Source of the DNA: Gemmatimonadaceae bacterium
GTDB lineage: Bacteria; Gemmatimonadota; Gemmatimonadetes; Gemmatimonadales; Gemmatimonadaceae
Length of the DNA stretch: 64,000 nt
Assembly: GCA_036554285.1 (NCBI GenBank)
Contig: DATBNO010000109.1
Coordinates: forward strand, 248-64,247
Direction: 5' to 3'
Positions 1 to 64,000 of this stretch are shown one piece after another. The stretch's first letter is position 1, and each line of letters opens with the position of its first letter. Under the pieces are notes generated by a model. It did no database searches. It worked only from the letters and a program-made list of their open reading frames with translations, and was not told where the DNA came from. The position numbers were made by a program, and so were the translations under genes.

Positions 1-401
1 TCACCGGCCGGCCGCTGTTCCCGTTCGGCTTTGGTCTCTCGTACACGTCGTTCGCGTATTCGGCGCTCGCCATCACGCCCGACACGATCGGCGCCGACGG
101 CGCGGCGCGCGTGACGTGCCGTGTCACGAACACCGGCGCGCGCGACGGCGACGAAGTCGTGCAGCTCTATCTCCACCACGAACTGTCCCCGATCGCGCGA
201 CCGGTCATCCAACTCGCCGGCTTTGCACGCGTGCATCTCGCGCCCGGTGCATCGCGCGACGTGTCCTTCACGCTCGACACGGCACAGCTCGCCGCACTCG
301 ACCAGAACATGCGGCGCACGGTCGAGCCCGGCGCCTATCGCATCATGATCGGAGCGTCATCCACGGACATTCGGCTGCGCGGGTTTCTCGAAGTCCGTTA
401 G
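1..401 (+). CDS. Glycoside hydrolase family 3 (beta-glucosidase-like), C-terminal fragment; 5' end lies outside the window
   Basis: Frame 3 is open to the window edge. Translation TGRPLFPFGFGLSYTSFAYS... then VTCRVTNTGARDGDEVVQLYLHH... matches the conserved GH3 C-terminal/Fn3-like region. The TAG stop (399-401) lies inside a CGTTAGGC motif copy. Confidence 0.85.
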   Translation, partial: TGRPLFPFGFGLSYTSFAYSALAITPDTIGADGAARVTCRVTNTGARDGDEVVQLYLHHELSPIARPVIQLAGFARVHLAPGASRDVSFTLDTAQLAALDQNMRRTVEPGAYRIMIGASSTDIRLRGFLEVR

Positions 402-657
402 GCATCGCGCGGGCTACCGCGCCGGCGAGGCGCCTCACCATCAGGCAGTCGAGCACGAGGCCGAGCACGACACCGCGGTGCACGCTCACGTAAGGGTACC
501 AACGTCGCGATTACGCGTCCACCCTGTATTCGCTGTCGGTGGCCCCAGGGTCGGGCACCGCGCGCCCAGATCACCCTTGTCCCGTTCGCCTGGACATGTC
601 AAGTTGATGATTGGCTGCATGTGCCCTGTGGAAGGGGCAAGCCAAGGAGAGCGGACC

Positions 658-1839
658 ATGCGGATTGTCTCGATCGCCGCGCATTCCGCCGTGATGCACG
701 GCCTGTGCACCATGGGATCGGTTGCGGCCTTTCTCACGCTTGCCCTCGGGCCGCCCCCTCTCGCCGCGCAAAGCGCGATGCCCCAAGGCACCGTCAACGC
801 ACTCGTTCGCGACACCAGCGGCGCGGAAATCACCGGCGCCGAGGTGGGCATCGCCGGTACCGACTTGCATGGCTACACCGACAGCGACGGCCGCCTCCGC
901 CTTGGCCCGGTCGCCGCCGGACCCGTCCGCCTAACGGTGCGGCGGTTGGGCTTCCGCGCGATGACGGTCGACCTCTCCGTCGCCGCCAATGGCGCAACGG
1001 CCGATACAGTGCAGTTGGTGGAGGTCGCGCACCGCCTCGACCCAATCCTCGTGCGTGGCTCGATCCATTCGTACAGCGGAACGATGTCCGGCTTCTACGA
1101 ACGCCGCGGCCAAGGCTTCGGCCACTTCTTCTCGCGCGCGGAAATCGAAAAGACGCACGTCACGCGTCTGAGTGACTTGTTTCGATACGTGCCCGGCATG
1201 CGCCTGGTGTCCACCAGCACAATCCAGAACGCGGTGCGCATGCGCGGCGCTACCACGTGCCCGCCGCTGGTGTGGCTGGACGGAACGCCCGCCGCCACGT
1301 CCGAATACGACCTCGACACGATGGACCCGCTTTCCATTGACGGCATCGAGATCTACAGCGGCCCGGCCGAAGTGCCCATGCAGTTCAAACCTCCTCTGGA
1401 CGTTGTGGCGTGCGGCGCGATCGTGATCTGGTCGCGGCGGGGCGAGCGGCACGACGAGTCGCCGTACGCGTCCGATCCCGACACATTGCAGAAGTTGGTG
1501 GCCGCGCTCACGATTTATACGGCCGACGAAGTGGACACGCCGGCGCATCAGGACACGGCGGTGCGCGTCCAGCCGGTCTATCCGGAAGCGCTCTTCATGT
1601 CGGGAACGAGCGGCAGGGTCGTCGCCGAATTCCTGGTCGACACGATGGGTCTCGTGTCGATGCCAACCTTTAGCGCCATCTCGTCCACCGACCCGGAATT
1701 CACGATTGCCGTTAGGCAGGCGTTGGAGAAAGCACAGTACGTGCCGGCCGTGCGCAAGGGCCAGAAGGTGCAGCAAGTGGTCGAACAGCCCTTCACGTTC
1801 GTCAGCGACAGCACCCTCGCCAAACGGCGCCGCGGCTGA
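658..1839 (+). CDS. Exported protein with carboxypeptidase-regulatory-like, TonB-receptor plug-like and TonB C-terminal-like domains
   Basis: ATG 658 is preceded by AAGGAGA (644-650) and followed by a hydrophobic signal-like N-terminus. Domain-like stretches: GTVNALVRDTSG...TDSDGRLRL (CarboxypepD_reg-like), FFSRAEIEK...VPGMRLV...VRMRG...LDG...IEIYSGPAEVP (plug-like), PVYPEALFMSGTSGRVVAEFLVD...PAVRKGQKV (TonB_C-like). The ORF-track start at 478 is judged too far upstream. Confidence 0.8.
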   Translation: MRIVSIAAHSAVMHGLCTMGSVAAFLTLALGPPPLAAQSAMPQGTVNALVRDTSGAEITGAEVGIAGTDLHGYTDSDGRLRLGPVAAGPVRLTVRRLGFRAMTVDLSVAANGATADTVQLVEVAHRLDPILVRGSIHSYSGTMSGFYERRGQGFGHFFSRAEIEKTHVTRLSDLFRYVPGMRLVSTSTIQNAVRMRGATTCPPLVWLDGTPAATSEYDLDTMDPLSIDGIEIYSGPAEVPMQFKPPLDVVACGAIVIWSRRGERHDESPYASDPDTLQKLVAALTIYTADEVDTPAHQDTAVRVQPVYPEALFMSGTSGRVVAEFLVDTMGLVSMPTFSAISSTDPEFTIAVRQALEKAQYVPAVRKGQKVQQVVEQPFTFVSDSTLAKRRRG

Positions 1840-1844
1840 CGATG

Positions 1845-1871
1845 AGGCCGGCCGGCCCACTCGGCCGGCCT
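1845..1871. terminator. GC-rich hairpin between convergent genes (AGGCCGGCC-loop-GGCCGGCCT), overlapping a GCCTAACG copy
   Basis: A 9-10 bp perfect stem read directly (1845-1853 pairs with 1863-1871). No U-tract on either side, so terminator function is uncertain. Confidence 0.35.
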
Positions 1872-1881
1872 AACGGAGAGG

Positions 1882-2628: not shown

Positions 2629-3037
2629 GGGGAGCTCGCGAGTGAATGGAGGGTGACGAGGCGCGCTCGGCCACGTCCGGCGCCGGCAGCGCATCGAGCG
2701 GGGATTGGCCTAACGCATCGGGCGCCGGCCGCCACCGCCGCGACCGCGTCACCATCCAGAGGCAGTAGAGCGCCAACGGCGGTACGCCGATCCAGAGCGC
2801 GATCTCGAGCGCCGTCGCCGATGCGATGTGCGTTGCCTTGCCGAACTCCGACACGGTGATCGAGAGGAGCGAATTGTCGAACGAGGCGTTCACCGTCGAT
2901 GTGTCCTTGGGCATATGCGTCGCGTGAATCATCGCGAGAATCGTCGGCGTGAGCGTCACGCCGGCCAACCCGACCCAGTACACACACCACGCCGTGATCA
3001 CGTGCCACGGCCGCCATCGAGCCAGAAACGACTTCAT
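2621..3037 (-). CDS. Hypothetical small membrane protein
   Basis: This is the C-terminal 139 codons of ORF 2621..3796, starting MKSFLARWRPWHVITAWCVYWVGLAG, with 2-3 hydrophobic segments. The part upstream of 3037 is antisense to hlyD and looks non-coding. No family recognised. Confidence 0.5.
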   Translation of the reverse strand: MKSFLARWRPWHVITAWCVYWVGLAGVTLTPTILAMIHATHMPKDTSTVNASFDNSLLSITVSEFGKATHIASATALEIALWIGVPPLALYCLWMVTRSRRWRPAPDALGQSPLDALPAPDVAERASSPSIHSRAPHA

Positions 3038-3070
3038 GACCGCCTCCCGCCAGAAAGCAAGACCTTGACG

Positions 3071-3103
3071 ATTCAAACAGTCGTTTAATACAATTGTTTG
3101 AAT
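3071..3103. promoter_or_regulatory. Perfect 9-bp inverted repeat ATTCAAACA-N15-TGTTTGAAT in an AT-rich divergent promoter region; candidate operator for the operon-encoded TetR
   Basis: Read directly. It lies 46 nt upstream of the hlyD ATG and is flanked by TTGACG (3065-3070) and TTGACA (3103-3108) -35-like hexamers. Confidence 0.45.
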
Positions 3104-3148
3104 TGACACGCCGGCCCCAAAACGTCGCTGGTCCGGAGCCCGACACTC

Positions 3149-4210: not shown

Positions 4211-5196
4211 CCGTCTCCATCGACGTCCGCGACATCGTCAAGCGGTTCGGCGATTTCACGGCCGTGGACGGCATCTCGTTCGCCGTCGACGACGGCGAGA
4301 CGTTCGGGCTCCTCGGGCCTAACGGCGCCGGCAAGTCCACGCTCATCCGCATGCTGACCACGCTGCTCCTGCCCACGTCGGGCACGGCAGTCGTGGGCGG
4401 ATACGACATCGTGAAGGACGCCGATCGCGTGCGCCGGGCGATCGGCGTGATTCCGCAGGCGCTCACGAGCGACCTCGATCTCACGGCCGAGGAGAACCTG
4501 TCGATCTTCGCCAAGCTCTACGGCGTGCCGCGCGAGCGCCGCAAGGCATTGATCGCCGATCTCCTGGCGTCGGTCGAGTTGAGCCAATGGGCGGACAAAC
4601 CGGTGAAGAATCTGTCGGGCGGCATGCGGCGCCGCGTCGAGATCGCGCGCGGGCTGGTGCACGAGCCGCGCATTCTGTTTCTCGACGAGCCGACCACGGG
4701 CCTCGATCCGGTGTCGCGGACGTCGGTGTGGGAGATGCTGCGCACCATCAAGAGCGAACGCCGCCTAACGGTGCTGCTCACGACGCACTACATGGACGAA
4801 GCCGACAAGCTCTGCGACCGCATCGCGATCGTGGATCATGGCAGCCTCAAGGCGCTCGACTCGCCGATGAAGCTCAAGGCGGCGATCCCCGGCGAGAACA
4901 CGCTCGAGGTGAGCTTCGCCCGCGAGCCCGCCGACTGGGCGGCGCGCCTGGCCGCGCTCCCCGCCGTGGTGCGCGTGGAAGGCGAGCCGCCGGTGTTCCG
5001 CATCGTGTCCACGAGCGGGCCGCAAACGACCAACGCACTCATGACGATGGCCGCCGCCGCCGGCGTCTCGATCAGCTCGCTCTCGGTGCAGAGCACATCG
5101 CTCGACGACGTGTTCGTGCACTACACGGGTCACCAGCTGCGCGACGCGCTCCAGGAGCCGGCGCCCACCGACAGCCGTTTCATGATGAGACGTTAG
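4207..5196 (+). CDS. ABC transporter ATP-binding protein (ABC-2/DrrA type)
   Basis: Walker A GPNGAGKST, signature LSGGMRRRVEIARGL, Walker B ILFLDEPTTGLD. The GTG start overlaps the hlyD stop (GTGA). The TAG stop is inside CGTTAGGC (5191-5198). Confidence 0.95.
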   Translation: MTVSIDVRDIVKRFGDFTAVDGISFAVDDGETFGLLGPNGAGKSTLIRMLTTLLLPTSGTAVVGGYDIVKDADRVRRAIGVIPQALTSDLDLTAEENLSIFAKLYGVPRERRKALIADLLASVELSQWADKPVKNLSGGMRRRVEIARGLVHEPRILFLDEPTTGLDPVSRTSVWEMLRTIKSERRLTVLLTTHYMDEADKLCDRIAIVDHGSLKALDSPMKLKAAIPGENTLEVSFAREPADWAARLAALPAVVRVEGEPPVFRIVSTSGPQTTNALMTMAAAAGVSISSLSVQSTSLDDVFVHYTGHQLRDALQEPAPTDSRFMMRR

Positions 5197-5198
5197 GC
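5191..5198 (-). repeat. Copy of the over-represented 8-mer (CGTTAGGC on + strand) acting as an intercistronic junction
   Basis: It contains the TAG stop of the ATPase gene and ends 2 nt before the ATG (5201) of the permease gene. The context is CGTTAGGCATATG. Confidence 0.9.
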
Positions 5199-5200
5199 AT

Positions 5201-9214: not shown

Positions 9215-10623
<1,409 letters not shown>

Positions 10624-12019: not shown

Positions 12020-12646
12020 ATGCGCAGACACGTCGTTCGCACCGCTGGCCTTGCCGGCGCACTGGCGTTGGCTCTCACCGCCGCACCATCGGCCGGGGCG
12101 CAGGCGCCTAACGAGGCGGCCGCGTCACAGCCGGCCCAGCCGTCGTCCCCGGTGTACCAGGGAGATCACGCCATGGATCATTACAAGAAGCCGAGCGACG
12201 CCGACCTCCAGAAGACGCTCACGCCGCTCGAGTACCAGGTGACGCAGAAGGCGTTTACCGAGTCGCCGTTCCACAATGAGTACTGGGACAACCACCAGGC
12301 CGGCATCTACGTGGACGTCGTCTCGGGCGAGCCGCTGTTCAGCTCTCTCGACAAGTTCGATTCGGGCACGGGCTGGCCGAGCTTCACCAAGCCGCTCGAG
12401 TCCAAGAACATCAAGACGGACACGGACAATTCGGACTTCATGGTGCGGACCGAGGTTCGCTCGAAGCACGCGAACTCGCACCTGGGCCACGTGTTCGACG
12501 ACGGGCCGAAGCCGACCGGGCTGCGCTACTGCATGAATTCGGCGGCGATGCGGTTCGTGCCCGTCGATTCGCTCAAGGCCGAGGGCTACGGACAGTTCCT
12601 GCCGTTGTTCGACAAAGCGGCGGCCGACGCCAAGACCCACAAATAG
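12020..12646 (+). CDS. msrB: Peptide-methionine (R)-S-oxide reductase MsrB with signal peptide
   Basis: SelR domain: [28 protein letters not shown]...[10 protein letters not shown]...RYCMNS. Internal ATG start [29 protein letters not shown]. Confidence 0.92.
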
Positions 12647-20803: not shown

Positions 20804-21049
20804 GATGGTTCTCCGATGGACGTTCGGTCACGAATCACGACCGGTTGCCGGCGGGCGAGCCCGCGGCGAGGCCGGGATAGAATGGCCGGAGGCGCGCGCC
20901 GGCGCAAGCCGCGTCCCCGCCTAACGGACGCACGCCGCGCCGGCGGCCGGCACCGCGGGCTACCCATTGCGTCGCAAGGGGAGAGCACGTAGCATCCGAA
21001 GAGGGCAACTGCCCATCTGAATCCCCGCGTCTCGACCACGAGTCCGCCA

Positions 21050-21397: not shown

Positions 21398-21424
21398 GGC
21401 CTAACGCAACGGCCGCCGACGCCG

Positions 21425-24806: not shown

Positions 24807-25130
24807 ATGGCCGATTTGGATCTCTTGCAGGGCACGCTGGACACCTTGGTGCTCAAAGCGCTCACGTGGGGTCCGCGGCACGGCTACGCCGTGGCCCGGT
24901 GGCTCAAGGACACGAGCTCGGGCACGATCGAGGTGGAAGACCGCGCGCTTTACGTCGCGCTCCACCGTCTCGAGGAGCGCGGGTGGGTCGACTCGCAGTG
25001 GGGCCTGTCGGAGAACAACCGCAGGGCCAAGTACTATCAGCTCACGGCGGCGGGCCGCCGGCAGCTCCGGCAGAAGAGCGCGGACTTCACCACCTATGCC
25101 ACCGCGATGTTCAAGGTGCTTCGCGCCTAA
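24807..25130 (+). CDS. PadR family transcriptional regulator
   Basis: LQGTLDTLVLKALTWGPRHGYAV...RALYVALHRLEERGWV...NNRRAKYYQLT. Starts 1 nt after the permease stop. Its TAA stop is inside GCCTAACG. Confidence 0.93.
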   Translation: MADLDLLQGTLDTLVLKALTWGPRHGYAVARWLKDTSSGTIEVEDRALYVALHRLEERGWVDSQWGLSENNRRAKYYQLTAAGRRQLRQKSADFTTYATAMFKVLRA

Positions 25131-25132
25131 CG
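25125..25132 (+). repeat. GCCTAACG copy providing both stop codons of a convergent, 4-nt overlapping gene pair
   Basis: TAA (25128-25130) ends PadR on the + strand. TAG (complement of 25127-25129) ends DinB on the - strand. Confidence 0.95.
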
Positions 25133-25723: not shown

Positions 25724-26914
25724 CTACTGCACGGCGTTGATCATGTCGAAGATCGGCAGGTACATGGCGACCACCATGCCGCCGACGATGACGCCCAAGA
25801 ACACGATCATGATCGGCTCCATCAAGCTCAACAACCCGCTGACGGCCGTGTCGACTTCGGTGTCGTAGAAGTCGGCGATCTTGGTGAGCATCTCGTCCAG
25901 ACCACCGGTTTGTTCGCCGACGGCGATCATCGAGATCACCATGGGCGGGAACACGGCGCTTTTTTGCAGCGGCGCGCTGATCGTGTCGCCGCCGGCGATG
26001 GACGAACGCGACTCCATGATGGCGTTGTGGATGACCTGATTGCCGGCCGTCTTGGCCGTGATCTCGAGGCCGTCGAGGATGCTGACGCCCGAGCTGATGA
26101 GTGTGCCTAACGTACGGGTGAAGCGTGACACGGCGCTCTTGCGCAGCATGTCGCCCAGGACCGGCATGTGGAGCATGAAGTTGTCGATCAGGAGGCGGCC
26201 GGGTGGCGTTTTGTAATACTGGCGGAGCATGAAGACGCCACCCCAGATGCCGCCGCCGAGCAGCCACCAATAGTGCTTGAGGAACGACGACAGCCCGATC
26301 ACGACGCGTGTCGGCAGCGGGAGCGACAGGTTCACGCTGGCGAACATGGTCTGGAAGACCGGGATCACGAAGATGAGCAACACGACAATGGCAATGAACG
26401 CCACGCTCATGATGACGGTCGGATAAATCATGGCGCTCTTCACCTTGCCGACGAGGGCGTCGTTCTTCTCGAGGAAGGTGGCGAGTCGCAGCAGAATCGT
26501 GTCGAGAATACCGCCCGCTTCACCGGCGGCAACCATGTTCACGTACAGATCCGTGAACGCCTTGGGGTGGCGGCGCAGGGCGTCGGCCACGGTGTGTCCG
26601 GACTCGACGTCGTACACCACCTGATGCGTGACGGCCTGCAGCGCCTTGTTCTCGCTCTGGCGCGACAGAATGTCGAGGGCCTGGACTAACGGAAGGCCGG
26701 CGTTGATCATCGTCGCGAACTGCCGGGTGAAGATGACGATGTCGCGCGTCTTGATGCGGCCGAGCCGTTTCTTGGCCTTCTCTTCGTCGATCTTGACGAC
26801 GATCAGTTTTTGCCGGCGCAGCTGCGCGACCACCTCGTCGCGAGTGGCGGCATCCATCGTGGCGGTCTTGAGCTCACCGCCGAGCGTACGCGCGGTATAG
26901 GCGAATGTGGGCAT
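25724..26914 (-). CDS. pilC: Type IV pilus assembly platform protein PilC (GspF family)
   Basis: Duplicated T2SSF domains (FTRQFATMINAGLPLVQAL...; FTRTLGTLISSGVSILDGL...). 396 aa. Confidence 0.95.
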   Translation of the reverse strand: MPTFAYTARTLGGELKTATMDAATRDEVVAQLRRQKLIVVKIDEEKAKKRLGRIKTRDIVIFTRQFATMINAGLPLVQALDILSRQSENKALQAVTHQVVYDVESGHTVADALRRHPKAFTDLYVNMVAAGEAGGILDTILLRLATFLEKNDALVGKVKSAMIYPTVIMSVAFIAIVVLLIFVIPVFQTMFASVNLSLPLPTRVVIGLSSFLKHYWWLLGGGIWGGVFMLRQYYKTPPGRLLIDNFMLHMPVLGDMLRKSAVSRFTRTLGTLISSGVSILDGLEITAKTAGNQVIHNAIMESRSSIAGGDTISAPLQKSAVFPPMVISMIAVGEQTGGLDEMLTKIADFYDTEVDTAVSGLLSLMEPIMIVFLGVIVGGMVVAMYLPIFDMINAVQ

Positions 26915-26936
26915 GGATTAGTCTCTGTCTCGCGGC

Positions 26937-28115
26937 CTAACGCTTGCCCGCTATCGATGCGATCTTCATCGCGTCGCGGGAGCTCTTGCCGCTCTTCACC
27001 AGGTCGGCGGCATCGGCGGTGAGCGGTTGTTCGCCGATCATGCGCATGAATTCGTTCGGGTCCGAGGTAACGCGCAGGCACTCGTCCATCTCGACTTCGC
27101 GCCCGACGTACAGCTGGTAGAGCGAGTCGTTGAGCGTCTGCATGCCGTACTTTTTGCCGCCCTGCATGAGGCCGTAGATCTGGTGGACCTTGGCGTCGCG
27201 AATGAGCGCGCGAATGGCTGGTGTGACCACGAGGATCTCGACGGCCATCGCCCGGCCGCGGCCCTTGGCGCGTGGAAGCAGCGTTTGCGTGATGATGCCT
27301 TCGAGCGAGAACGCCAGCTGCGCGCGCACCTGTTCTTGCTGGTGCGAGGGGAACACGTCGATGACGCGGTTGATGGCTTCCGCCGCGGAATTGGTGTGCA
27401 GCGTGGCCAGACACAAGTGACCGGTCTCTGCGATTGTCAGTGCGGCCTGGATGGTTTCGAGGTCGCGCATTTCGCCGACGAGGATCGTGTCGGGGTCTTC
27501 GCGGAGGGCGTACTTGAGCGCGGTGGCGAAGCTCTTGGTGTCGGTGCCGACTTCGCGCTGGTTGACGATGCAGCTTTGATGGCGGTGGATGAACTCGATC
27601 GGGTCTTCCACCGTGATGATGTGGCCTTTGCGTTCGCGGTTGATCTTGTCGATCATGGCCGCGAGCGTGGTGCTCTTGCCCGATCCCGTTGGTCCCGTGA
27701 CGAGGACGAGTCCGCGCGGCTTTTCCGCCATGCGTGCAGTGGCGGCGGGGAGGCCAAGCTCCTCGAAGGTGCGGACGTTGAAGGGGATTTGGCGGATGAC
27801 GAGAGAGACGCAGCCGCGCTGCTTGAAGCAGTTGCCTCGGAAGCGCGCGAGGTTCTGGATGCCGAAGGAGAAGTCGAGCTCGTCTTCGGTCTCGAATCGC
27901 TTTTTCTGATTCTCGGTGAGGATCGAATACGCCAATTGCATCGTGTCTTTTGGGGAGAGCACGATGTCGACGTTGGCATTTTGGATGTCGCCGTCGATGC
28001 GCAGTTTCGGTTTGTCGCCCGCCGTGATGTGCAGGTCGGACGCATCGCGCTCGATCATCTCTTCGAGGAGCGAGCGGAGGTTGACCGACGAAGGAGCTGG
28101 AGCGGGAGACGTCAT
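26937..28115 (-). CDS. pilT: Type IV pilus retraction ATPase PilT family
   Basis: ASDLHITAG, Walker A GPTGSGKSTT, Asp/His boxes, AIRALIRDAKVHQIY PilT signature. Start MTSPAPAP at 28115. The TAG stop is inside the motif copy at 26935-26942. Confidence 0.95.
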   Translation of the reverse strand: MTSPAPAPSSVNLRSLLEEMIERDASDLHITAGDKPKLRIDGDIQNANVDIVLSPKDTMQLAYSILTENQKKRFETEDELDFSFGIQNLARFRGNCFKQRGCVSLVIRQIPFNVRTFEELGLPAATARMAEKPRGLVLVTGPTGSGKSTTLAAMIDKINRERKGHIITVEDPIEFIHRHQSCIVNQREVGTDTKSFATALKYALREDPDTILVGEMRDLETIQAALTIAETGHLCLATLHTNSAAEAINRVIDVFPSHQQEQVRAQLAFSLEGIITQTLLPRAKGRGRAMAVEILVVTPAIRALIRDAKVHQIYGLMQGGKKYGMQTLNDSLYQLYVGREVEMDECLRVTSDPNEFMRMIGEQPLTADAADLVKSGKSSRDAMKIASIAGKR

Positions 28116-28257
28116 GGCCTGTATCGGGAGGGAAGTCGGAACGGCGTTACACGATAGACTTGCGAGCGGCAACGGTGGTAAAACGGCGCTCGACCTTTCG
28201 GACGACCGATCGAATCACCCCGCGCACCGAGGCAGTCACCCTTCTCTCGCTCGTCGA

Positions 28258-30084
28258 TCAAGCCGCCGTTTCGCGGATTACCTGCTCGAGGGTCGTGATG
28301 CCCTTCATGATTTTGAGCATGCCGTCCATGCGGAGTGTGAGCATGCCATCGGAGATGGCTGCTTCGCGGATCTCGACGGCGCCGACGTTTTGGAGAATGA
28401 GTTTGCGGACGCGGGGCGTCATGGCCATGACTTCGTACAGGCCTTGGCGCCCTTTGAGTCCCGAGCCGGCGCACGCGTCGCATCCGCGGCCGCGCCACAG
28501 GGGCACTTGCTCGATGGTGGTATCGAGACTGAAGTCGGCGACGATCGCCTGTGCATCGGCGGTGGCGCCGCGCTTCATGTTCTGGACGGCTTCCTCGGTA
28601 TAGTGCAGCTCACGAAGACTCATTTTCGGGCCGACTTTCGCCGCGCGGTACTCATCATCTCCCCACTCGTACCGCTCTCGACAGCGATTACAGATGCGGC
28701 GGACGAGGCGTTGTGCGAGCACCAGGTTCAGCGCCGACGCGACGTTGAACGGCTCGAGACCCATGTCCAACAGTCGCGTGACCGTTTCGGGCGCCGAGTT
28801 GGTGTGGAGGGTGGACATGACGAGGTGACCGGTGAGGGCCGCCTTGATGGCGATACCACCGGTCTCGAGGTCTCGGATCTCACCGATCATGATGATGTTC
28901 GGGTCTTGCCGCAGGAATGCTTTGAGGGCTGCGGCGAACGAGAGCCCGATATCGGTGCGCACCAGAACCTGATTGATCCCGTACAGATTGTATTCGACGG
29001 GATCTTCGGCGGTCATGATGTTGACGTCGATGTTGTTGACCTTGGACAGCGCCGAATAGAGCGTGGTGGTTTTGCCGGATCCCGTTGGGCCGGTGACGAG
29101 CACCATGCCGTACGGGTTGGACACGGCTTCCATGAGGTCTTGTTCGGCGCGCGGCTCGATGCCGAATTTCTCGAGGTCGAGGGTGAGGTTTCCCTTGTCG
29201 AGAATTCGGAGCACGACCTTTTCACCGAACAGCGTTGGCAACGTGGAGACGCGGTAGTCGATGACTTTCTTGCCGATCTTGAGCTTGATGCGGCCGTCTT
29301 GGGGAACGCGCCGTTCGGCAATGTTGAGGTTCGCCATGATCTTGAAGCGTGAGATCAGGGCGGCCTTGAGTTTCATGGGCGGCCTCATGACTTCCTGCAG
29401 AGCACCGTCGACGCGGTAGCGGACACGCATCTCGTGTTCGTAGCACTCGAAGTGGATGTCTGAAGCGCCGCGTTTCACGGCGTCGGTGAGGAGGCCGTTG
29501 ATCAGCTTGACGACGGGTGCGTCATCGATGGCCGCGGCGAGGGCCGTGGCGTTGATCTCTTCTTCGCGGTCTTCGACGACTTCGACATCGCCATCGTCGC
29601 CGATATCGGCGAGAAGGTTTTGGAGCGCATCGTCCGGCGTTTCGCCGTAGTGGCGCTCGATGGCGTTGCGGAGCGTGTACTCGCCGGCGATGACCGGAAA
29701 GATGTCGTACCGCGTGATGAACTTGAGGTCGTCGATGACGCCGAGGTCAGAGGGGTCGGCCATCGCGACGGTGAGGGTGCGTCCTTCGCGCTTGAGGGGG
29801 AGCACGAGGTGACGCTGAGCCAGCTCGGAGGGGATGAGCTTGGCGATGCGTGCATCGACCTCGAAATTGCTGAGGTCGACAGCAGGCATCCGGTATTGGC
29901 GCGCGAGCATCCTGGTGAGGTCGACTTCGTCGATGAAGCCGAGCTTGACCAGGTTGTAGCCCACGCGCATGCCCGTGTTTTTCTGCTCCTGGAGGGCTTT
30001 ATCGAGTGCTTCGCGTGTGATGAGCCCTTCACGAATGAGGAGCTCGCCGATGCGCTCGCCAGATGCAGCTACGGGTGCAGCCAT
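28258..30084 (-). CDS. pilB: Type IV pilus assembly ATPase PilB (GspE family) with N-terminal T2SSE_N/MshEN domain
   Basis: GELLIREGLITREALDKAL N-domain, Walker A GPTGSGKTTT, and tetracysteine C-terminal motif (CNRC...CDAC). Confidence 0.95.
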   Translation of the reverse strand: MAAPVAASGERIGELLIREGLITREALDKALQEQKNTGMRVGYNLVKLGFIDEVDLTRMLARQYRMPAVDLSNFEVDARIAKLIPSELAQRHLVLPLKREGRTLTVAMADPSDLGVIDDLKFITRYDIFPVIAGEYTLRNAIERHYGETPDDALQNLLADIGDDGDVEVVEDREEEINATALAAAIDDAPVVKLINGLLTDAVKRGASDIHFECYEHEMRVRYRVDGALQEVMRPPMKLKAALISRFKIMANLNIAERRVPQDGRIKLKIGKKVIDYRVSTLPTLFGEKVVLRILDKGNLTLDLEKFGIEPRAEQDLMEAVSNPYGMVLVTGPTGSGKTTTLYSALSKVNNIDVNIMTAEDPVEYNLYGINQVLVRTDIGLSFAAALKAFLRQDPNIIMIGEIRDLETGGIAIKAALTGHLVMSTLHTNSAPETVTRLLDMGLEPFNVASALNLVLAQRLVRRICNRCRERYEWGDDEYRAAKVGPKMSLRELHYTEEAVQNMKRGATADAQAIVADFSLDTTIEQVPLWRGRGCDACAGSGLKGRQGLYEVMAMTPRVRKLILQNVGAVEIREAAISDGMLTLRMDGMLKIMKGITTLEQVIRETAA

Positions 30085-36537: not shown

Positions 36538-36645
36538 AAAACGGGGAAGCGCGCGCTGGGGGAGGCGCTGCGCTGGGGGAAGCGGCGGCTCGCGCCGCCC
36601 TCGGAAACGGAGAACGGCGGAGCGTGGGAAGTGAGGCGTGGGCCG

Positions 36646-37212
36646 TTAGGCCGTCGAAAGGCGGCGGGCGTAGTCGGCGAGGCGGATCAGCAGGCGTTGG
36701 ACGAAGCCGCGGGTCGTGGCGTCCGTTAGGCGGAGGTTGGCATCGAACTTGGTCGCGGCGGCGCCGACGAGCACCTCGGGACCGGGTAGCACGTACGACT
36801 GCGTGAACACGAACGACTGACGGAGCGCCAGTTGTGCGCGCGTCGTGCCCGACGTGCCCGTGGTGGCGCCCATCAGCGCGATGGGTTTGCGGTGCAACGA
36901 CGAGTCCGACGGAGGGCGAGACGCCCAGTCGATGGCATTCTTGAGCGCGGCCGTCGGCCCGAAATTGTACTCGGGACTCGCGATGAGGAGTCCATCGGCC
37001 GCACGAACGGCGTTGCGCCACGCGACCGCCTGCGGTGGGCCACCGTTCGTATCGATGTCGGGATTGTAGAGCGGCAGGTCGCCGATCCCGACGTATTCCT
37101 CGATCACCATGTCAGGCGGCGCGAGCTCGATCGCGGCGTGGAGCAACGCGCGATTGTAGGACTTGGCGCGCAGGCTGCCGGACACGCCGAGGATGCGAAG
37201 TGGTGTCGTCAT
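36646..37212 (-). CDS. NADPH-dependent FMN reductase
   Basis: Start MTTPLRILGVSGSLRAKSYNRALL...LLIASPEYNFGPTAALKNAIDW. The TAA stop is inside motif copy 36644-36651. Confidence 0.9.
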   Translation of the reverse strand: MTTPLRILGVSGSLRAKSYNRALLHAAIELAPPDMVIEEYVGIGDLPLYNPDIDTNGGPPQAVAWRNAVRAADGLLIASPEYNFGPTAALKNAIDWASRPPSDSSLHRKPIALMGATTGTSGTTRAQLALRQSFVFTQSYVLPGPEVLVGAAATKFDANLRLTDATTRGFVQRLLIRLADYARRLSTA

Positions 37213-50903: not shown

Positions 50904-52334
50904 GTGCTCCTCGTGAGCACCAATCGAGAGCGGCAGCCGATGCCCGTCGTGCCTAACGGCGTGGCGTGTGTGGCATCGGCGTTGGACCAAGCCGGATACA
51001 CGGTGCGGGTGGCGGATCTGTGTTTCGCCTCCGATCCTCATGCCGCCGCCCGCGCCGCGGCCCGCTCCTTCCAGCCGGACGTCATCGGCGTCTCGGTCCG
51101 CAACATCGACAACAGCGACCTCATCGCGCTCGAGCACTACACGCCCGAGGCGAGCGCCGTGTTGCGCACGCTGCGCGACGCGGCGCCCGACGCGCGCGTG
51201 ATCGCCGGCGGCGCGGCGTTCGGCGTCGCACCGGCGTCGTTGTTCGACGAGTTAGGCGTGGAGTTCGCCGTGGCCGGCGACGGCGAGCGGGCGACCACGG
51301 CGCTTCTCGATGCGCTCTCCGCGGGACGCGACCCGGCCGGCATTCCCGGCGTGGTGTCCCGCGGCCAGACGGCCACCGTCGTGACGCCGCCCGGCGGCGA
51401 TCCGGACGTGGATGCCTTCCCCTCGGCGCGCATGCATCGCTGGCTCGATCTCGCCAGGTACGAGCGGCGCGGCGGCACGGTGCCGATACAGACCAAGCGC
51501 GGCTGCGTGTTCAAGTGCATTTACTGCACGTATCTCAACGTCGAGGGTTGGGGGTATCGCCTGCGCGATCCCGAGCACGTCGTCGACGAAATGGAAGAGT
51601 TGGTGCACGACGCGGGTGTGCGGCACTTCGAGTTCGTGGACTCGACGTTCAATGCTCCGCCCCGCCATGCGGCCGCGATCTGTGAAGCGATCACGCGTCG
51701 CCCGCTGCGCGTCAAGCTGGACACGACCAACTTCACACCGGCTGCCGTGCCGCCCTACTTGCTCGACCCGATGCGCGCCGCGGGGTTCCGCTGGTTAGGC
51801 ATCACCGCCGAGAGCGCGAGCGACCCGGTGCTCGAGCGGCTCGAGAAGGGATTCGACGCGGCGCGCGTGAGGCAAGTGGCGGGCGAGGTCGAACGCGCCG
51901 GCATCGGCGTCCTCTGGATTTTTCTCGTCGGCGGTCCGGGCGAAACGATGCGGACGCTGAACGAAACGCTCGCCTTCGCGGTCGAGCGACTCGAGCGCGG
52001 CGACGCGGTGTACCTCACCGTTGGGCTGCGAGTGTATCCGGGCACGACGCTCCACCGGGTCGCGCTCGACGAGGGCGTCGTCGAACACGGTGATCCGCTC
52101 CTCGTGCCGCGATTCTATTTCTCGAGCGCGCTCTCGTTCGAGGCGGCGGTCGCGCGGCTGCGCCAAGTTGCGGCCCGCCATCCGCGGTTCATGTTCTCGG
52201 CCGACTCGCGGTCGGCGATTCTGCCGTACTTGACGCGGCTCGCATCGGTGTTGCACTTGCCGCGTCCGCATTGGCGGTACATGGGACTGTTCCAGCGAGT
52301 GGCCCGGTTGGGCGACCGCGTGCGCGCCGGCTAA
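50904..52334 (+). CDS. B12-binding-domain radical SAM protein (class B)
   Basis: N-terminal Rossmann-like B12 domain (VLLVSTNRE...VIGVSVRN), then CVFKCIYC (CxxxCxxC) radical-SAM cluster motif. GTG 50904 is preferred over ORF-track ATG 50784, which overlaps the lipoprotein gene. Confidence 0.9.
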   Translation: MLLVSTNRERQPMPVVPNGVACVASALDQAGYTVRVADLCFASDPHAAARAAARSFQPDVIGVSVRNIDNSDLIALEHYTPEASAVLRTLRDAAPDARVIAGGAAFGVAPASLFDELGVEFAVAGDGERATTALLDALSAGRDPAGIPGVVSRGQTATVVTPPGGDPDVDAFPSARMHRWLDLARYERRGGTVPIQTKRGCVFKCIYCTYLNVEGWGYRLRDPEHVVDEMEELVHDAGVRHFEFVDSTFNAPPRHAAAICEAITRRPLRVKLDTTNFTPAAVPPYLLDPMRAAGFRWLGITAESASDPVLERLEKGFDAARVRQVAGEVERAGIGVLWIFLVGGPGETMRTLNETLAFAVERLERGDAVYLTVGLRVYPGTTLHRVALDEGVVEHGDPLLVPRFYFSSALSFEAAVARLRQVAARHPRFMFSADSRSAILPYLTRLASVLHLPRPHWRYMGLFQRVARLGDRVRAG

Positions 52335-53577: not shown

Positions 53578-54051
53578 ATGATCGATGCCCCGACGTTTCG
53601 CAGCACGCTCGGCCGCTTTGCCACCGGCGTGACGGTGCTCACGGCGCGCGACGCGAGCGGCCGCGATCACGGCATGACCGTGAGCGCGTTCTGCTCGGTG
53701 AGTCTCGATCCGCCGCGCGTGTTGTGCTGTGTCGAGCGCAGCGCCGACATGTATCCCATCATCCAGGCCGCGTCGCACTTCGCGATCAATATTCTGACGA
53801 CGGCGCAGGAGCCGATTTCGCGGCGGTTCGCCGAGGAGCGCGACGACCGGTTCGACGGGTTGGGCTACACCCGCGGCCTAACGGGATTGGTGCTGCTCGA
53901 GGACACGCTCGCCTACCTCGAGTGCGCGGTGGCGGCGCGGTACGACGGCGGCGACCATCTCGTCGTGTTGGGCGACGTGATCGCCGGCGCGGCGTCGGAC
54001 GGCCGCCCGCTGCTGTACTACCGCGGCGGCTACGCGCAGATGGAGCGGTGA
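53578..54051 (+). CDS. Flavin reductase-like (FMN-binding split-barrel) protein
   Basis: FRSTLGRFATGVTVLTA...GMTVSAFCSVSLDPP...HFAINIL. An alternative TTG start at 53551 overlaps the upstream gene. Confidence 0.88.
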   Translation: MIDAPTFRSTLGRFATGVTVLTARDASGRDHGMTVSAFCSVSLDPPRVLCCVERSADMYPIIQAASHFAINILTTAQEPISRRFAEERDDRFDGLGYTRGLTGLVLLEDTLAYLECAVAARYDGGDHLVVLGDVIAGAASDGRPLLYYRGGYAQMER

Positions 54052-55282: not shown

Positions 55283-55324
55283 CGGCGCGCGCAACTTCAT
55301 CTCGAGCACACGGCACATAACGAC

Positions 55325-56563: not shown

Positions 56564-57998
56564 CGGGATTCGTTCCGTTAGGCGACCCGCCAAGCGCCTT
56601 GCGCAGCGCGCGCTGCACGGTGCGCTCGAGCGAGCGGGAGTCGGTGAACGGGTGGACGCGCCGCCAGGCCTCGAGATCCATCACGGCCTTGGCCATCACC
56701 GGATGGCCGCCGGCGCTGCCGTAGCGCTTGAACTCGGCCCGCAGGCGCTCGCCTAACCGGGCAGCCGGCGACAACGCGCGCGTGCTCATCACGAGGTTCG
56801 TCCCGAACACGCCCGACACGGCCGACACCGACGCGCCCGCCATCCCCAGGCAGAACTCGGCCAGCTGGGCCACGATGTGCTCCTGGTCTTCCGGCAACCG
56901 GCCCAAGTGCACGTAGGCCAGTCCCTCGTGCACGCGCGGGCGCTGCAGCGCATCGCCGAACCGCTTGAGCGCGAGCGTGCCGTACGACGGATGCTGAATG
57001 CGCCGCAGCATCGCCTGATCGGCCCGCGGGAACAGATACGCGAACATCTGCAGGTCGTCGTCGCTCGCCGAGCGCGAGAGCGACTTGGTGTCGGTCACGA
57101 TGCCGTAGAGCAGCGCCGTCGCCAACGGCGTCGCGATCTCCTGCTCGTCGGACGCCAACAGATACTCGGCCGCCATTGTGGCGCTCGCGCCGAACCACGT
57201 GCGCACGTCGCGGAAGCCCGAGCGATACGCCCCGGTGGTGGGGTGGTGGTCGACCACCGCCGCGACCTCGGGCAACGGGACCGTGAAGTAGGGCGGCTGC
57301 ACGTCGACGAGCACGAGCGGCGCCGATGCGGCGAGCTCCCGGCGCGTGACGTGCGCGACGACGACGCCCAACTCCTCGATCAGCCGGCGATTCTCGGGCC
57401 GCGTGACGTAGCCTAACGTAATGATCGGCGAGCGCTCGGGACGCATGCCTAACGCTCGGCGCAGCGCGAGGGCCGAGGCGATCGCGTCGGGGTCGGGGTC
57501 GTTCTGGACGAGGAACGCGCAGGTGCGCCGGCCGCGCAGCGCGCGCCGGAGACCGCGCAGGCGCTTGTGCGAGGCGACGCGCCGCAGCACCAGCTCGATC
57601 GCATCGGCCAGCAGCTCGCCCTCGTCAAGCCAGCGCAGTCCATCGCGGGCCGGTCCGTGGTGCGCCTTCCGCCAGTGGTCGATGACGAGGATCGACGCCG
57701 GCGGGAACGCGCCGCGCACCGCGCGCGCGACGCGCCGGGCGCGCGTCTCATCGGCGAGATCGATGACGGCGATCGCATCGCGCCCCTCGAGCGGCGCGAA
57801 CGTTTCCGACTTCGCCGGATCGCCGCGCAACGGCACCGACCAGTTAGGCACACGATGGTGGTCGCCGGTCCACAGGAACACCTCGCGGCCGGCGAGCGCG
57901 GATTGGCGCAACGCCTGCAAACGACCCGGCTGGTCGGACACGAACAGCACGCCGACCTTCGATCCGGACGATGGCACCGCTTTCGTACGATCGGTCAC
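56529..57998 (-). CDS. DHH/DHHA1 family phosphoesterase (NrnA-like) with N-terminal Rossmann/TrkA-N-like domain
   Basis: DHH motif AAVVDHHPT and DHHA1 GGH motif GSAGGHPVMAKA. GTG 57998 overlaps the ppa stop (GTGA). The 3' end overlaps the convergent KAS gene by 35 nt. Confidence 0.85.
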   Translation of the reverse strand: MTDRTKAVPSSGSKVGVLFVSDQPGRLQALRQSALAGREVFLWTGDHHRVPNWSVPLRGDPAKSETFAPLEGRDAIAVIDLADETRARRVARAVRGAFPPASILVIDHWRKAHHGPARDGLRWLDEGELLADAIELVLRRVASHKRLRGLRRALRGRRTCAFLVQNDPDPDAIASALALRRALGMRPERSPIITLGYVTRPENRRLIEELGVVVAHVTRRELAASAPLVLVDVQPPYFTVPLPEVAAVVDHHPTTGAYRSGFRDVRTWFGASATMAAEYLLASDEQEIATPLATALLYGIVTDTKSLSRSASDDDLQMFAYLFPRADQAMLRRIQHPSYGTLALKRFGDALQRPRVHEGLAYVHLGRLPEDQEHIVAQLAEFCLGMAGASVSAVSGVFGTNLVMSTRALSPAARLGERLRAEFKRYGSAGGHPVMAKAVMDLEAWRRVHPFTDSRSLERTVQRALRKALGGSPNGTNPVSSPSAARARR

Positions 57999-59629: not shown

Positions 59630-59649
59630 GCCTAACGTCCCGCCTAACG
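59630..59649 (+). repeat. Two direct GCCTAACG copies 12 nt apart (GCCTAACGTCCCGCCTAACG) in the hemB-AKR intergenic gap
   Basis: Read directly. The second copy contains the hemB TAG stop (complement of 59644-59646). Confidence 0.95.
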
Positions 59650-60615: not shown

Positions 60616-60678
60616 ATGCCTAACGCAACGAAATTGAATGAACCGGCCGGCGCGCGCGCGCCGGATCGAGTGGCGACG

Positions 60679-61704: not shown

Positions 61705-61708
61705 GCCT

Positions 61709-63256
61709 CTAACGCAGACCGACTACCACCGCGTCGACGAGCGCGTCGATCGTCGCCGTGGCCGCCTCGGCGTGCACGGCGAAGCCAAGCGACCGCGCGG
61801 CGGCGCTGGTCACCGGCCCCATGGTGATCACACGCGCCTCGCCCACCACATCCGCGCTGCCGCCGGCATCGACGAAGAATCGCACGGTGGACGCCGAGGT
61901 GAACGTGATCGCATCCACGGAGCCGGCCTCGAGCGCCTCACGCGCCGCCCTCGCACCCGACGCGTCGGCCACTGTCCGATAGGCGACGACCTGGTCGACG
62001 GCAGCGCCGACGCGCCCGAGCGTGTCGGGCAGCGTGTCACCCGCGCCCTCGGCTTTCACGAACAACACGCGCGCACCTCGCACATCGGGGCGATCGCGCA
62101 GGGCGTCGGCCAAGCCTTCGGCCGTGGAACGCGCCGGGATGACGTCGGCCGCGATGCCCCGCGCGAGGAGCGCGCGTGCGGTTGCCTGCCCAACCGCGCC
62201 CACGCGCACACCGGCGAACTGCCGCGCGTCGCCGCCCGCGGCGCGGAGGATGTCCCACGCGATCTCGACCGCGTTCTGCGACGTGAACAGCACCCACTGG
62301 CACTCGGTCAGACGCTCGAGCGCGGCGCGGATGGGCGCCGGGTTGGCCGCCTCGATCACGATGGCCGGCGCCTCGATCACATCTGCGCCTAACTCAGTTA
62401 GTCGAGCGGCCAGATCCGATGCCTGCGCGCGCGCGCGCGTCACGATGATGCGGCGGCCGGAGAGCGGCCGCCGGTCGAACCACGCGATCTCGTCGCGCAG
62501 CCGCGCCACTTGGCCCACGATCGTGATCGACGGCGCCGTCACCTTGGCGTCGCGCGCGGCGTCGACGATTCCCGCGAGCGTCGCGCACACGGTGCGCTGC
62601 CGCGGCCACGTGCCCCATTCCACCACCGCGGCCGGTGTGTCACCCGACAACCCCGCCTTCGACAGTGCAGCCACGATCCCCGGCAGCCGCTTGACGCCCA
62701 TGTAGAGCACGAGAGTCCCGCCGGCGCGCGCCAACGACCCCCAATCGACGTCGCTTTCGGACTTCGCCGGATCCTCGTGTCCCGTCACGAACGTCACGGC
62801 CGATGCGAGACCCCGATGCGTCACCGGAATCCCTGCGTAGGCGGGTGCGGCAACGCCCGCGGTCACGCCGGGCACGATCTCGAACGTGACACCAGCCGTC
62901 GCCAGCGCCTGCGCTTCCTCGCTGCCGCGCCCGAACACGAACGGATCGCCGCCCTTGAGGCGCACCACGCGCTTGCCCTCCCGCGCCAGCCGCACGAGGA
63001 GCGCGGTGATTTCGTCCTGCGGCGTCGACCGCGAGCCGCCGCGTTTGCCCACATCGTGGAGCTCTGCACCGGCGCGCACCCCACCGTCATGCAGGATGCG
63101 CGGATTCACGAGGGCGTCGTACACCACCGCGTCGGCGGCGCCGAGCAGCGCGTGCGCTTTCATCGTTAGCAGGCCCGGATCACCGGGGCCTGCCCCAACG
63201 AGCGAGACGAATCCGCTTGGCTTGGGGGGCGACGAGTCCCCGGAGGAAACGTGCAT
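61709..63256 (-). CDS. Fused uroporphyrinogen-III C-methyltransferase / uroporphyrinogen-III synthase (CobA-HemD)
   Basis: VSLVGAGPGDPGLLT...VVRLKGGDPFVFGRG...VPGVTAG (SUMT domain), followed by a HemD-like domain (RIIVTRA...VLFTSQNAV). Start MHVSSGD at 63256. Confidence 0.9.
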   Translation of the reverse strand: MHVSSGDSSPPKPSGFVSLVGAGPGDPGLLTMKAHALLGAADAVVYDALVNPRILHDGGVRAGAELHDVGKRGGSRSTPQDEITALLVRLAREGKRVVRLKGGDPFVFGRGSEEAQALATAGVTFEIVPGVTAGVAAPAYAGIPVTHRGLASAVTFVTGHEDPAKSESDVDWGSLARAGGTLVLYMGVKRLPGIVAALSKAGLSGDTPAAVVEWGTWPRQRTVCATLAGIVDAARDAKVTAPSITIVGQVARLRDEIAWFDRRPLSGRRIIVTRARAQASDLAARLTELGADVIEAPAIVIEAANPAPIRAALERLTECQWVLFTSQNAVEIAWDILRAAGGDARQFAGVRVGAVGQATARALLARGIAADVIPARSTAEGLADALRDRPDVRGARVLFVKAEGAGDTLPDTLGRVGAAVDQVVAYRTVADASGARAAREALEAGSVDAITFTSASTVRFFVDAGGSADVVGEARVITMGPVTSAAARSLGFAVHAEAATATIDALVDAVVVGLR

Positions 63257-63503
63257 CACAGGAAAATTTGCTTCGCCATGTTCGGTCAATTCGCAGTCCT
63301 TATGCCGAGGCGCCGCCTGGTGAGCTCCTCTGAAGTTGTTGAAAATGATAACTAAAGGGATGCGAGTGATGGGGAAGATCGCTCGGCCGCACATCCAAAG
63401 TCACCGGTGCACCCGCCTGGATGCGTTCACGCGCGTTTGCGATGCACACGCCGTCGCGCCGGGGGCGTGCATCGAGCGCCCCGGACACGTATGATCAAGG
63501 GAC

Positions 63504-64000
63504 ATGACCACGTCAGCGGGCACGTCCGCCGCGACTCACACCGTCCTCGCGGGTTGTTCGTTCGCGGGACTCGAGTACCTCTATCGCACCGTGCGGCGTC
63601 GCGGTCGGTTCCCGCATGGGGCGATGACGGTCATCGATCCGCGTCCCATTCATTCGTACATCCCCCTGGCGCACGAAGTGACCGGCGGCGTGCGCGAGGC
63701 GGATGACCTGCGCTTCGATGCGGCGGCCTTCTGCCGTGCGATCGGCGCCGAATGGATCCAGGGCGCCGTCGCCACCCTGGACCGCGAGCGCCGAGTGGTG
63801 GGGCTGGCCGACGGCAAATCGGTGCCCTACGATAGGCTGGTGATCGCGATCGGCAGCGTGCCTAACCTGCCGGAGGCGTTCGCGCGATCGCCGGCGGTGA
63901 TTCCCGCCAAATTCGTGGATGACGCGGCGGCGCTGCGCCGTCGGCTACACGTGCTGAGGGTGTCGGGCGCGAGCGTGTTGCGCGTCGCGGTGATCGGCGG
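63504..64000 (+). CDS. FAD-dependent pyridine-nucleotide-disulfide oxidoreductase (NDH-2-like), N-terminal fragment running off the window
   Basis: Not in the ORF track because there is no stop in the window. My reading from ATG 63504 gives MTTSAGTSAATHTVLAGCSFAGLEYL...IDPRPIHSYIPLAHEV...YDRLVIAIGSVPN...LRVAVIG, which fits NDH-2-type Rossmann spacing. Confidence 0.7.
   Translation, partial: MTTSAGTSAATHTVLAGCSFAGLEYLYRTVRRRGRFPHGAMTVIDPRPIHSYIPLAHEVTGGVREADDLRFDAAAFCRAIGAEWIQGAVATLDRERRVVGLADGKSVPYDRLVIAIGSVPNLPEAFARSPAVIPAKFVDDAAALRRRLHVLRVSGASVLRVAVIG

Follow-up and report, generated by a model that had tools for sequence, protein, structure and literature searches.

A hyper-abundant, strand-asymmetric DNA word in a Gemmatimonadaceae genome and in phage contigs: a candidate self signal of the uptake-sequence kind

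What could hold a short, asymmetric DNA word, built from the rarest codons of its surroundings, at about one copy per kilobase through genes and spacers alike? The question is raised by a 64,000-nt stretch of a Gemmatimonadaceae contig (hereafter the window, meaning the whole stretch of DNA analyzed), in which the octamer GCCTAACG, or CGTTAGGC in the opposite orientation, recurs throughout. The over-representation of this word, GCCTAAC(G), is real. We tentatively favor, at slightly less than even confidence, a reading in which GCCTAAC(G), with a weak 3' extension nA, would be a self word spread by biased DNA uptake and recombination; several other forces were weighed against it.

Abundance, form and placement of the word

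An exact search of the window, whose G+C content is 67.5% rather than the "about 70%" of the original prediction made from the sequence alone, returned 70 copies of the 8-mer, 48 as GCCTAACG and 22 as CGTTAGGC on the + strand; every one of the 70 positions listed beforehand was exact, with none missing and none extra. A further 28 copies hold the core without the final G (GCCTAACH, with A, C or T at position 8). This count was also as predicted, together with 25 of the positions, while three positions were off by 1-10 nt, the true starts being 31246, 34650 and 57843. The word thus reaches 1.1/kb as the 8-mer and 1.5/kb as the 7-mer GCCTAAC.

Counting both strands, base composition (order 0) predicts 2.4 copies of the 8-mer, an order-1 Markov model 1.06 and an order-2 model 1.2, against the 70 observed. 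This is a 30-60-fold excess over low-order models, in keeping with the roughly two expected copies and the 30-fold excess first estimated. The word is the top over-represented 8-mer of the window by z-score, GCCTAAC is the top 7-mer (98 observed vs 2.5 expected), and GCCTAACH occurs 28 times against 1.16 in dinucleotide shuffles. The strictest null that we built, because it keeps both the proteins and the pooled codon usage, was a synonymous-codon shuffle confined to genes, with each protein sequence preserved: 54 in-gene 8-mers were observed against 1.1 (standard deviation 1.0; maximum 5 in 300 shuffles). Markov models of orders 4-6 reproduce the count (54-70 expected copies). We regard this agreement, and with it the maximal-order comparison proposed as a check, as circular and as no refutation of the excess, because nearly all of the window's 104 CCTAA, 103 CCTAAC and 98 GCCTAAC belong to the word itself.

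Positions 1-7 of the word are sharp, with a total of 64 one-mismatch variants vs 59 expected, and the sole clear excess among them is GCCCAACG (20 vs 5.4 expected), a TTG-GGC intermediate. The word softens at position 8 (G 70, A 7, C 10, T 11), and the second position downstream is A in 60% of copies (0.8 bit), 11 copies extending to GCCTAACGSAACG; elsewhere the flanks, read over 12-15 nt, are uninformative. The copies in the window cannot be traced to a repeat family, tandem array, Rfam family or tRNA. Origin from a longer repeat, whether a repetitive extragenic palindrome (REP), a miniature inverted-repeat transposable element (MITE) or a CRISPR array, was ruled out by the unconserved flanks and by the absence of arrays and of any Rfam match, as had been anticipated. 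The NTS/Ssn hairpin repeats were likewise ruled out, since those are 28-nt hairpins that are rarely genic. Copies are spaced almost at random (coefficient of variation 0.87-0.90 vs 0.98), with no even or periodic spacing beyond chance within 64 kb.

According to 58 gene calls, which cover 90% of the window and largely match database calls between 46 and 64 kb, the 8-mers comprise 54 copies within coding sequence, 6 that overlap stop codons and 10 intergenic ones, consistent with the earlier statement that copies occupy genes of both strands, intergenic DNA and both orientations. Density is 0.93/kb in genes, the 6.4 kb outside them reach about 2.5/kb, and 11 of the 58 gene ends have a copy on the stop or at most 12 nt past it; copies at gene ends in the window are single. 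Relative to their genes, 26 in-gene 8-mers read in the same and 28 in the opposite orientation. Because both orientations occur, an RNA-level role is excluded, including a signal at translation starts or stops. The six stop-codon copies, in which the stop is TAA in GCC TAA CG or TAG in CGT TAG GC, are as follows (coordinates, strand of the word, setting):

396..403, - strand, TAG at 399-401 is the stop of a + strand gene ending at 401
5191..5198, - strand, TAG of the gene 4207-5196 (+); the copy ends 2 nt before the ATG at 5201 of an ABC-2 permease gene
25125..25132, + strand, TAA at 25128-25130 is the stop of a PadR-like gene (24807-25130)
26935..26942, + strand, TAG stop of pilT (26937-28058, -)
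36644..36651, - strand, TAA stop of the gene 36646-37212 (-)
59642..59649, + strand, TAG stop of hemB (59644-60615, -)

Half of the ten intergenic copies lie 1-12 nt past a stop codon, mostly in short spacers between gene ends:

1868..1875, + strand, between convergent gene ends at 1839 and 1882
2708..2715, + strand, in a divergent promoter region
12106..12113, + strand, upstream of the called msrB start; intergenic status hinges on the chosen start codon
12647..12654, - strand, fills most of the 12-nt gap between convergent msrB (end 12646) and an ADOP permease gene (end 12659)
20919..20926, + strand, in a divergent promoter region
21399..21406, + strand, between convergent genes, 2 nt past a stop codon
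22044..22051, + strand, upstream of the called start of an ADOP permease gene; intergenic status hinges on the chosen start codon
45151..45158, + strand, between convergent gene ends at 45139 and 45167
59630..59637, + strand, between hemB and an aldo-keto reductase gene, forming a direct pair with the copy at 59642, 12 nt away
60618..60625, + strand, 2 nt upstream of the hemB ATG; the - strand reads CGTTAGGCATATG

The gene hemB is therefore bracketed by the word, with one copy over its TAG stop and another ending 2 nt before its ATG. The CGTTAGGCATATG junction is common to the hemB start and the ABC-2 permease gene start at 5201, and three or four start codons follow a copy by 0-2 nt, against about 0.1 expected by chance.

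The copies are also unevenly divided between the two DNA strands. The 48:22 split of the 8-mer (binomial p = 0.0025) bears out the bias of about 2:1 noted earlier; the + orientation leads in seven of eight bins of 8 kb, and the asymmetry recurs in both gene sets (14:7 in + strand genes, 22:10 in - strand genes). Among coding sites that could synonymously hold the word, 36/77 are filled in the + and 18/72 in the - orientation (Fisher p = 0.007), the Mantel-Haenszel odds ratio for orientation across frames is 2.3, and the 7-mer is split 61:37. The 2:1 DNA-strand asymmetry is genuine and does not follow gene direction. At 69% (8-mer) and 62% (7-mer), polarity stays below the >90% that had been set as the mark of FtsK-orienting polar sequences (KOPS). 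The replication-associated component of GC skew at third codon positions (GC3 skew) is 0.016 (95% confidence interval -0.02 to 0.06), not different from zero, and so does not point to a leading strand; any co-orientation of the word with replication would be hypothetical.

Origin in place, relatives and phages

All four stop-free reading frames are occupied by the in-gene 8-mers:

xCG TTA GGC, Leu-Gly, 23 copies
xxG CCT AAC G, Pro-Asn, 17 copies
xGC CTA ACG, Leu-Thr, 9 copies
C GTT AGG C, Val-Arg, 5 copies

The word is made of the window's rarest codons, and 44 of the 55 TTA (80%), 22 of the 45 CCT (49%), 9 of the 27 CTA (33%) and 7 of the 32 AGG fall within its core. It spells 22 of 36 Pro-Asn and 45 of 172 Leu-Gly dipeptides. 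Synonymous-compatible coding sites hold the 8-mer in 54 of 149 cases and the 7-mer in 82 of 256, evenly across genes; in the Pro-Asn frame, 17 of 20 compatible sites hold the 8-mer. A 4.4-kb motif-free stretch across pilT-pilB reflects a scarcity of compatible sites (3 in pilT and pilB, 8 with pilC included) rather than a foreign origin.

Window genes from about 43 kb on were aligned with their orthologues from four motif-poor loci (L329, L330, L328 and L007). At most copies, the orthologues have the same residues (ALG, TLG, ELG, RLG, APN, VPN, GPN), written as CTG/CTC GGC or CCG/CCC AAC; a minority of copies accompany a residue change (VPD/VPE to VPN, GVT to GLT, SLA to SLG), and no indels are involved at copies in these alignments. 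The word therefore spreads by point substitution under directional pressure at the DNA level, and it is created in place, mostly by synonymous recoding to TTA GGC or CCT AAC. For instance:

57411..57418, + strand, DHH-family gene, ACG TTA GGC (Thr-Leu-Gly); ACC CTC GGC or ACT CTG GGC in motif-poor orthologues; also present in relative L327
57447..57454, + strand, GCG TTA GGC (Ala-Leu-Gly); GCC CTC GGC or GCG CTG GGT in motif-poor orthologues
50951..50958, + strand, B12/radical-SAM gene, GTG CCT AAC (Val-Pro-Asn); GTC CCG AAC or GTG CCG AAC in motif-poor orthologues
53876..53883, + strand, GGC CTA ACG (Gly-Leu-Thr); Gly-Val-Thr or Gly-Ile-Ser in orthologues, hence an amino-acid change

Relative L327, with 91% protein identity, has most word sites in common with the window, and the more distant, motif-bearing L008 has the word at other sites; between close relatives the word keeps its sites, and over longer evolutionary distances they turn over. 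None of the single-nucleotide polymorphisms among six near-identical contigs of the same population touches a copy. The degree of recoding differs markedly between loci:

Window: Leu-Gly as TTA-GG 30%, Pro-Asn as CCT-AAC 47%
L327: Leu-Gly as TTA-GG 44%, Pro-Asn as CCT-AAC 50%
L008: Leu-Gly as TTA-GG 17%, Pro-Asn as CCT-AAC 25%
Five motif-poor Gemmatimonadota loci (83 kb of genes): Leu-Gly as TTA-GG 0.5%, Pro-Asn as CCT-AAC 7.5%

L327 and L008 are thus enriched, with weak enrichment or none in L007, L329, L330, L333 and Longimicrobium. The 80% relative L328 has four GCCTAAC cores, none followed by G, and the 72% relative L329 has three 8-mers in 21 kb; no enrichment was found in about 70 loci from other phyla. 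Judging from these loci, the word is specific to one Gemmatimonadaceae sub-clade and absent from its sister lineages. Several high-GC metagenome contigs bear it with a softer first base, and a metagenome scan for a triple-core pattern gave mostly tandem repeats and about seven short motif-rich contigs (loci L207-L326). The tandem-repeat matches came from unrelated low- to mid-GC organisms, and gapped short-word patterns harvest motif-rich genomes poorly.

The word also reached phages. A scan of viral contigs for two copies at most 30 nt apart returned mostly chance matches, together with several contigs of 66-69% G+C that carry many dispersed copies, four of which are bona fide phages:

L113/L336: QueE-like gene, DNA polymerase A, helicase, terminase, portal and head genes
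L120/L416: tail module with a tape-measure gene
L088: terminase
L185: tape-measure gene

Two of these contigs, L336 (IMGVR_UViG_3300020577_002214, 1-16939) and L416 (IMGVR_UViG_3300020577_001838), come from the same Joint Genome Institute (JGI) sample and were compared with control phages picked by protein relatedness rather than by the word, which removes ascertainment bias. CCTAACG occurs 14 times in the 16.9 kb of L336 (0.83/kb) and 9 times in the 13.4 kb of L416 (0.67/kb). The 28 related high-GC phage loci, which total 357 kb, have 6 copies between them, so the enrichment is about 40-fold. Similarly, Leu-Gly is written as TTA-GG in 13-22% of cases in word-rich phage genes vs 0.7% in control phages. 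The phage copies have no clear polarity (8:6 and 3:7), and position 1 of the word is soft in phages and in the other contigs. These word-rich phages probably infect this bacterium's lineage, and the QueE-like radical-SAM enzyme encoded by L336 suggests 7-deazaguanine modification of its DNA.

Taken together, the comparisons show a directional force, acting at the DNA level, that overrides codon preference and holds the word at about 1-1.5 copies/kb. This force spans the four stop-free frames, both orientations, non-coding DNA and at least two phage contigs.

Several motif-bearing contigs also show the word in short direct tandem runs with periods of 9, 12 or about 20 nt. These are mostly intergenic or at gene ends, the pair in L120 being called inside a gene, and their arrangement suggests a protein-binding array more than a terminator:

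L239, 3005-3032
L312, 2366-2406
L237, 8129-8188
L088, 1981-2170
L120, 6605-6624
Window, 59630-59649

Two candidate "dialects" of the word, CCTGAACC (L330) and GGAAACA (L333), were rejected, as they are clustered intergenic tandem heptamers in inverted blocks and not dispersed words. Sister Gemmatimonadaceae without the dispersed word have such inverted intergenic blocks, with the unit CCCTGAA/CCCTGCA, GGAAACA or GGGGGAC depending on the lineage. The heptamer core of the word may or may not be meaningfully linked to these units.

L330: tandem-heptamer blocks at 2768-2913, 7015-7148 and 12661-12781
L333: tandem-heptamer blocks at 8543-8641 and 9960-10054
L007: tandem-heptamer block in the region downstream of hemB
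Window: (GGGGAAC)x3 at 40747-40767, the sole such run there

Candidate forces behind the word

The reading that we tentatively favor is modeled on the DNA uptake sequences (DUS) of Neisseriaceae (GCCGTCTGAA and dialects) and the uptake signal sequences (USS) of Pasteurellaceae (AAGTGCGGT / ACAAGCGGT). As in Neisseria and the Pasteurellaceae, the force would be a molecular drive, in which DNA is taken up with a sequence bias and then enters the chromosome by homologous recombination. A surface receptor, plausibly in the type IV pilus apparatus, would prefer word-bearing fragments, and because of this proposed preference word-carrying alleles would be over-transmitted. The word would accumulate where the protein tolerates it, that is, in Leu-Gly, Pro-Asn, stop codons and spacers between convergent genes, and accumulation would halt once most kb-sized fragments held a copy. 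Prophages long resident in the lineage would gain it by the same route.

Such a drive would explain most of the facts, since it accounts for a per-site force that is independent of the number of sites and for an equilibrium density near one per kb. The type IV pilus is the kind of machine that imports DNA in species with DUS or USS, and we count pilB, pilT and pilC in the window as support for pilus-based uptake, graded weak because such genes are widespread. The Hin-USS saturates at roughly 750 per Mb (PMC6776037), a level matched by the 1.1/kb of the word (core 1.5/kb). Temperate phages of the Pasteurellaceae accumulate the host USS, to the extent that USS frequency picked out all 12 known ones among 2045 Caudovirales, and large, probably lytic phages are USS-poor (PMC6776037). 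Like DUS and USS, the word is short and asymmetric, occurs about once per kb in both orientations in genic and intergenic DNA, arises by point substitution, sways codon and residue choice, is denser in non-coding DNA and at gene ends, appears clade-specific with soft outer positions, and has probably accumulated in phages of its hosts.

Several observations weigh against uptake as the force. It predicts neither the 2:1 DNA-strand asymmetry nor the missing inverted pairs nor the missing one-off variants: close pairs in the window are direct, with no close inverted pairs or terminator-like hairpins, and variants with one mismatch at positions 1-7 are not in excess, whereas USS come with a large halo of them. 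We know of no such strand asymmetry for USS; it is typical of Chi-like polar motifs. One motif-rich phage has its own DNA polymerase as well as the QueE-like enzyme, and would count against the drive if virulent, a virulent phage being out of its reach. No receptor candidate was identified, pilB, pilT and pilC being the only pilus or competence genes seen in the window, and full-text searches gave no paper linking Gemmatimonadota or this word to uptake sequences or hyper-abundant motifs. The analogy with uptake sequences drawn in the original prediction therefore stands for density, shortness, asymmetry, occurrence in both orientations, dispersal, lineage specificity and phages, and breaks down at the inverted pairs, the one-off halo and the strand bias. 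The word further differs from DUS and USS in its unrelated sequence and its phylum, Gemmatimonadota (so far from metagenome-assembled genomes (MAGs) and metagenomes only), with an uptake bias and a receptor that are only putative.

The strand asymmetry is more at home in a second reading, possible although on the whole unlikely, in which the word would be a Chi-like polar self signal read by a recombination nuclease or translocase (RecBCD, AddAB). The enzyme would degrade DNA until it met a correctly oriented word, selection would keep the word frequent and mainly on one of the replication strands, and mimicry of it would let phages escape degradation. An asymmetric 7-8-mer with 69% of copies on one strand, a bias that runs evenly through the 64 kb whatever the gene direction, fits this picture, as do the few one-off variants and the enrichment in phages, including the one with its own replication genes. 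The word also varies among related lineages, much as Chi changes from taxon to taxon. Chi sites of RecBCD and AddAB are likewise asymmetric, over-represented 5-8-mers with moderate strand bias, taxon specificity and possible phage enrichment. Chi is reported to be over-represented in lambdoid phages without recombinases (PMC3784561). Against this, the phage copies of the word show no clear polarity, and the GC3 skew does not identify a leading strand with which they could be co-oriented. The word is 5-7 times denser than E. coli Chi, its excess is about 10 times larger, and it is not G-rich, unlike known Chi and KOPS. Chi uses common codons; the word is written in the rarest ones and fills about a third of its compatible sites. 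Selection per attenuator site among thousands should be negligible, far too weak for this purpose, so a Chi-like role would hardly explain a 50-fold excess in rare codons. The polar KOPS and architecture-imparting sequences (AIMS) share with the word an asymmetric octamer with strand bias, but AIMS are G-rich octamers found about once per 5-30 kb with a polarity of >80-90%, in contrast with one word per 0.7-0.9 kb at 62-69% polarity.

A third possibility, to which we give little weight, is that the word is no uptake tag and that a cell-internal, sequence-directed conversion writes it on all cellular DNA, phages included. Examples would be an asymmetric-site methyltransferase with biased mismatch correction, or a nuclease favoring word-bearing strands, and asymmetric action on the replication strands would produce the 2:1 bias. 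If true, this would represent a new kind of genome-wide signature-writing system.

A further reading, which we also consider rather unlikely, follows the highly iterated palindrome HIP1 of cyanobacteria (GCGATCGC, with alternate HIPs). A methyltransferase recognizing (G)CCTAAC, together with a mismatch-correcting nuclease, would bias repair toward the word, so that all DNA replicating or recombining in the cell, phages too, would be converted at near-cognate sites. HIP1 is itself hyper-abundant in all frames with non-preferred codons (PMC5861425), as the word is. Both are 8-mers that reach up to one copy per gene; relatives share them, and certain lineages lack them or have a replacement. The very sharp core, with softness only at the outer positions 8 (window) and 1 (phages and other contigs), also agrees, HIP1 variants reportedly having been described by Elhai in 2015 with softness at outer positions. 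The high saturation of compatible sites and the recoded phages agree as well, and asymmetric 6-7-mers are typical recognition sites of type IIG, type III and BREX methyltransferases. HIPs, however, are palindromic and tied to orphan methyltransferases, whereas the word is asymmetric and strand-biased, with no known methyltransferase and no precedent for an asymmetric site of this kind; no DNA methyltransferase or Vsr-like gene occurs in the 64-kb window. The repair model is unproven even for HIP1, whose function is still open after 30 years, and the change from CTG or CTC to TTA needs two substitutions, which is beyond mismatch-correction bias alone.

It seems improbable that the word is the binding site of an abundant chromosome-organizing or replication-associated protein, kept dense by selection, or, in a related version, a spread-out form of the heptamer arrays of sister lineages. 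The short direct intergenic runs, the inverted tandem-heptamer blocks with lineage-specific units in sister lineages, and the strand asymmetry would suit such a protein. On the other side, spacing is indistinguishable from random, the sister-lineage heptamers are not dispersed, and no protein known to us would require genic sites 0.7 kb apart at the expense of rare codons.

Finally, a by-product of codon, dipeptide or oligonucleotide usage, or an origin from mobile-repeat fragments, can be dismissed with near certainty: the high-order Markov models that reproduce the count do so circularly, and both ideas are refuted by the synonymous shuffle (1.1 vs 54), by relatives with the same proteins and without the word, by copies in four frames, both orientations and non-coding DNA, and by the unconserved flanks.

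Within the limits of our literature search, this word is the first of the DUS/USS/HIP1 kind in Gemmatimonadota, and its strand asymmetry is unusual. A metagenomic study does make the case that recombination linked to competence is widespread among abundant soil bacteria, this phylum among them (PMC7305173). To our knowledge, uptake-type self words have been established experimentally in only two proteobacterial families. If the uptake reading is true, the word would be a third, unrelated and strand-asymmetric self word, found in an abundant, scarcely cultivated soil phylum, and would open natural transformation and recombination among soil bacteria to concrete tests. The word could also provide a tag by which metagenome contigs and phages are assigned to a host clade, and a natural experiment on DNA-level drive vs codon usage, with one third of permissible sites filled and 80% of TTA codons lying within it.

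Host and gene context

The gene content of the window is typical of Gemmatimonadota and Acidobacteriota, and its HemB is 73-75% identical to proteins of Gemmatimonadaceae MAGs among the matches listed, most of which came from other phyla; two Gemmatimonadaceae loci from this listing were of use. Contigs 99.8-99.9% identical to the window were found in the NCBI MAG GCA_025449955.1 and in five JGI metagenomes. Besides three ADOP duplicated permeases with PadR regulators, the window encodes lptF/G, mlaE/D, an msbA-like gene, hemB-hemC-cobA/hemD and a B12/radical-SAM lipid cluster with fabF, as well as the pilus genes:

25724..30084, - strand, pilC, pilT and pilB, type IV pilus assembly and retraction; word sparse, 8 compatible sites

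Each of the three ADOP genes (11521-25130) adjoins a small PadR-type regulator gene, and the paralogues have stretches that are 70-80% identical (repeat families D3, I1 and I2). The lipid-type cluster at 50904-56563, comprising a B12-binding radical-SAM protein (TIGR04072 "ladder" family), an FAD oxidoreductase, a flavin reductase, a methyltransferase, a polyketide cyclase and fabF, is syntenic in all the Gemmatimonadaceae relatives fetched.

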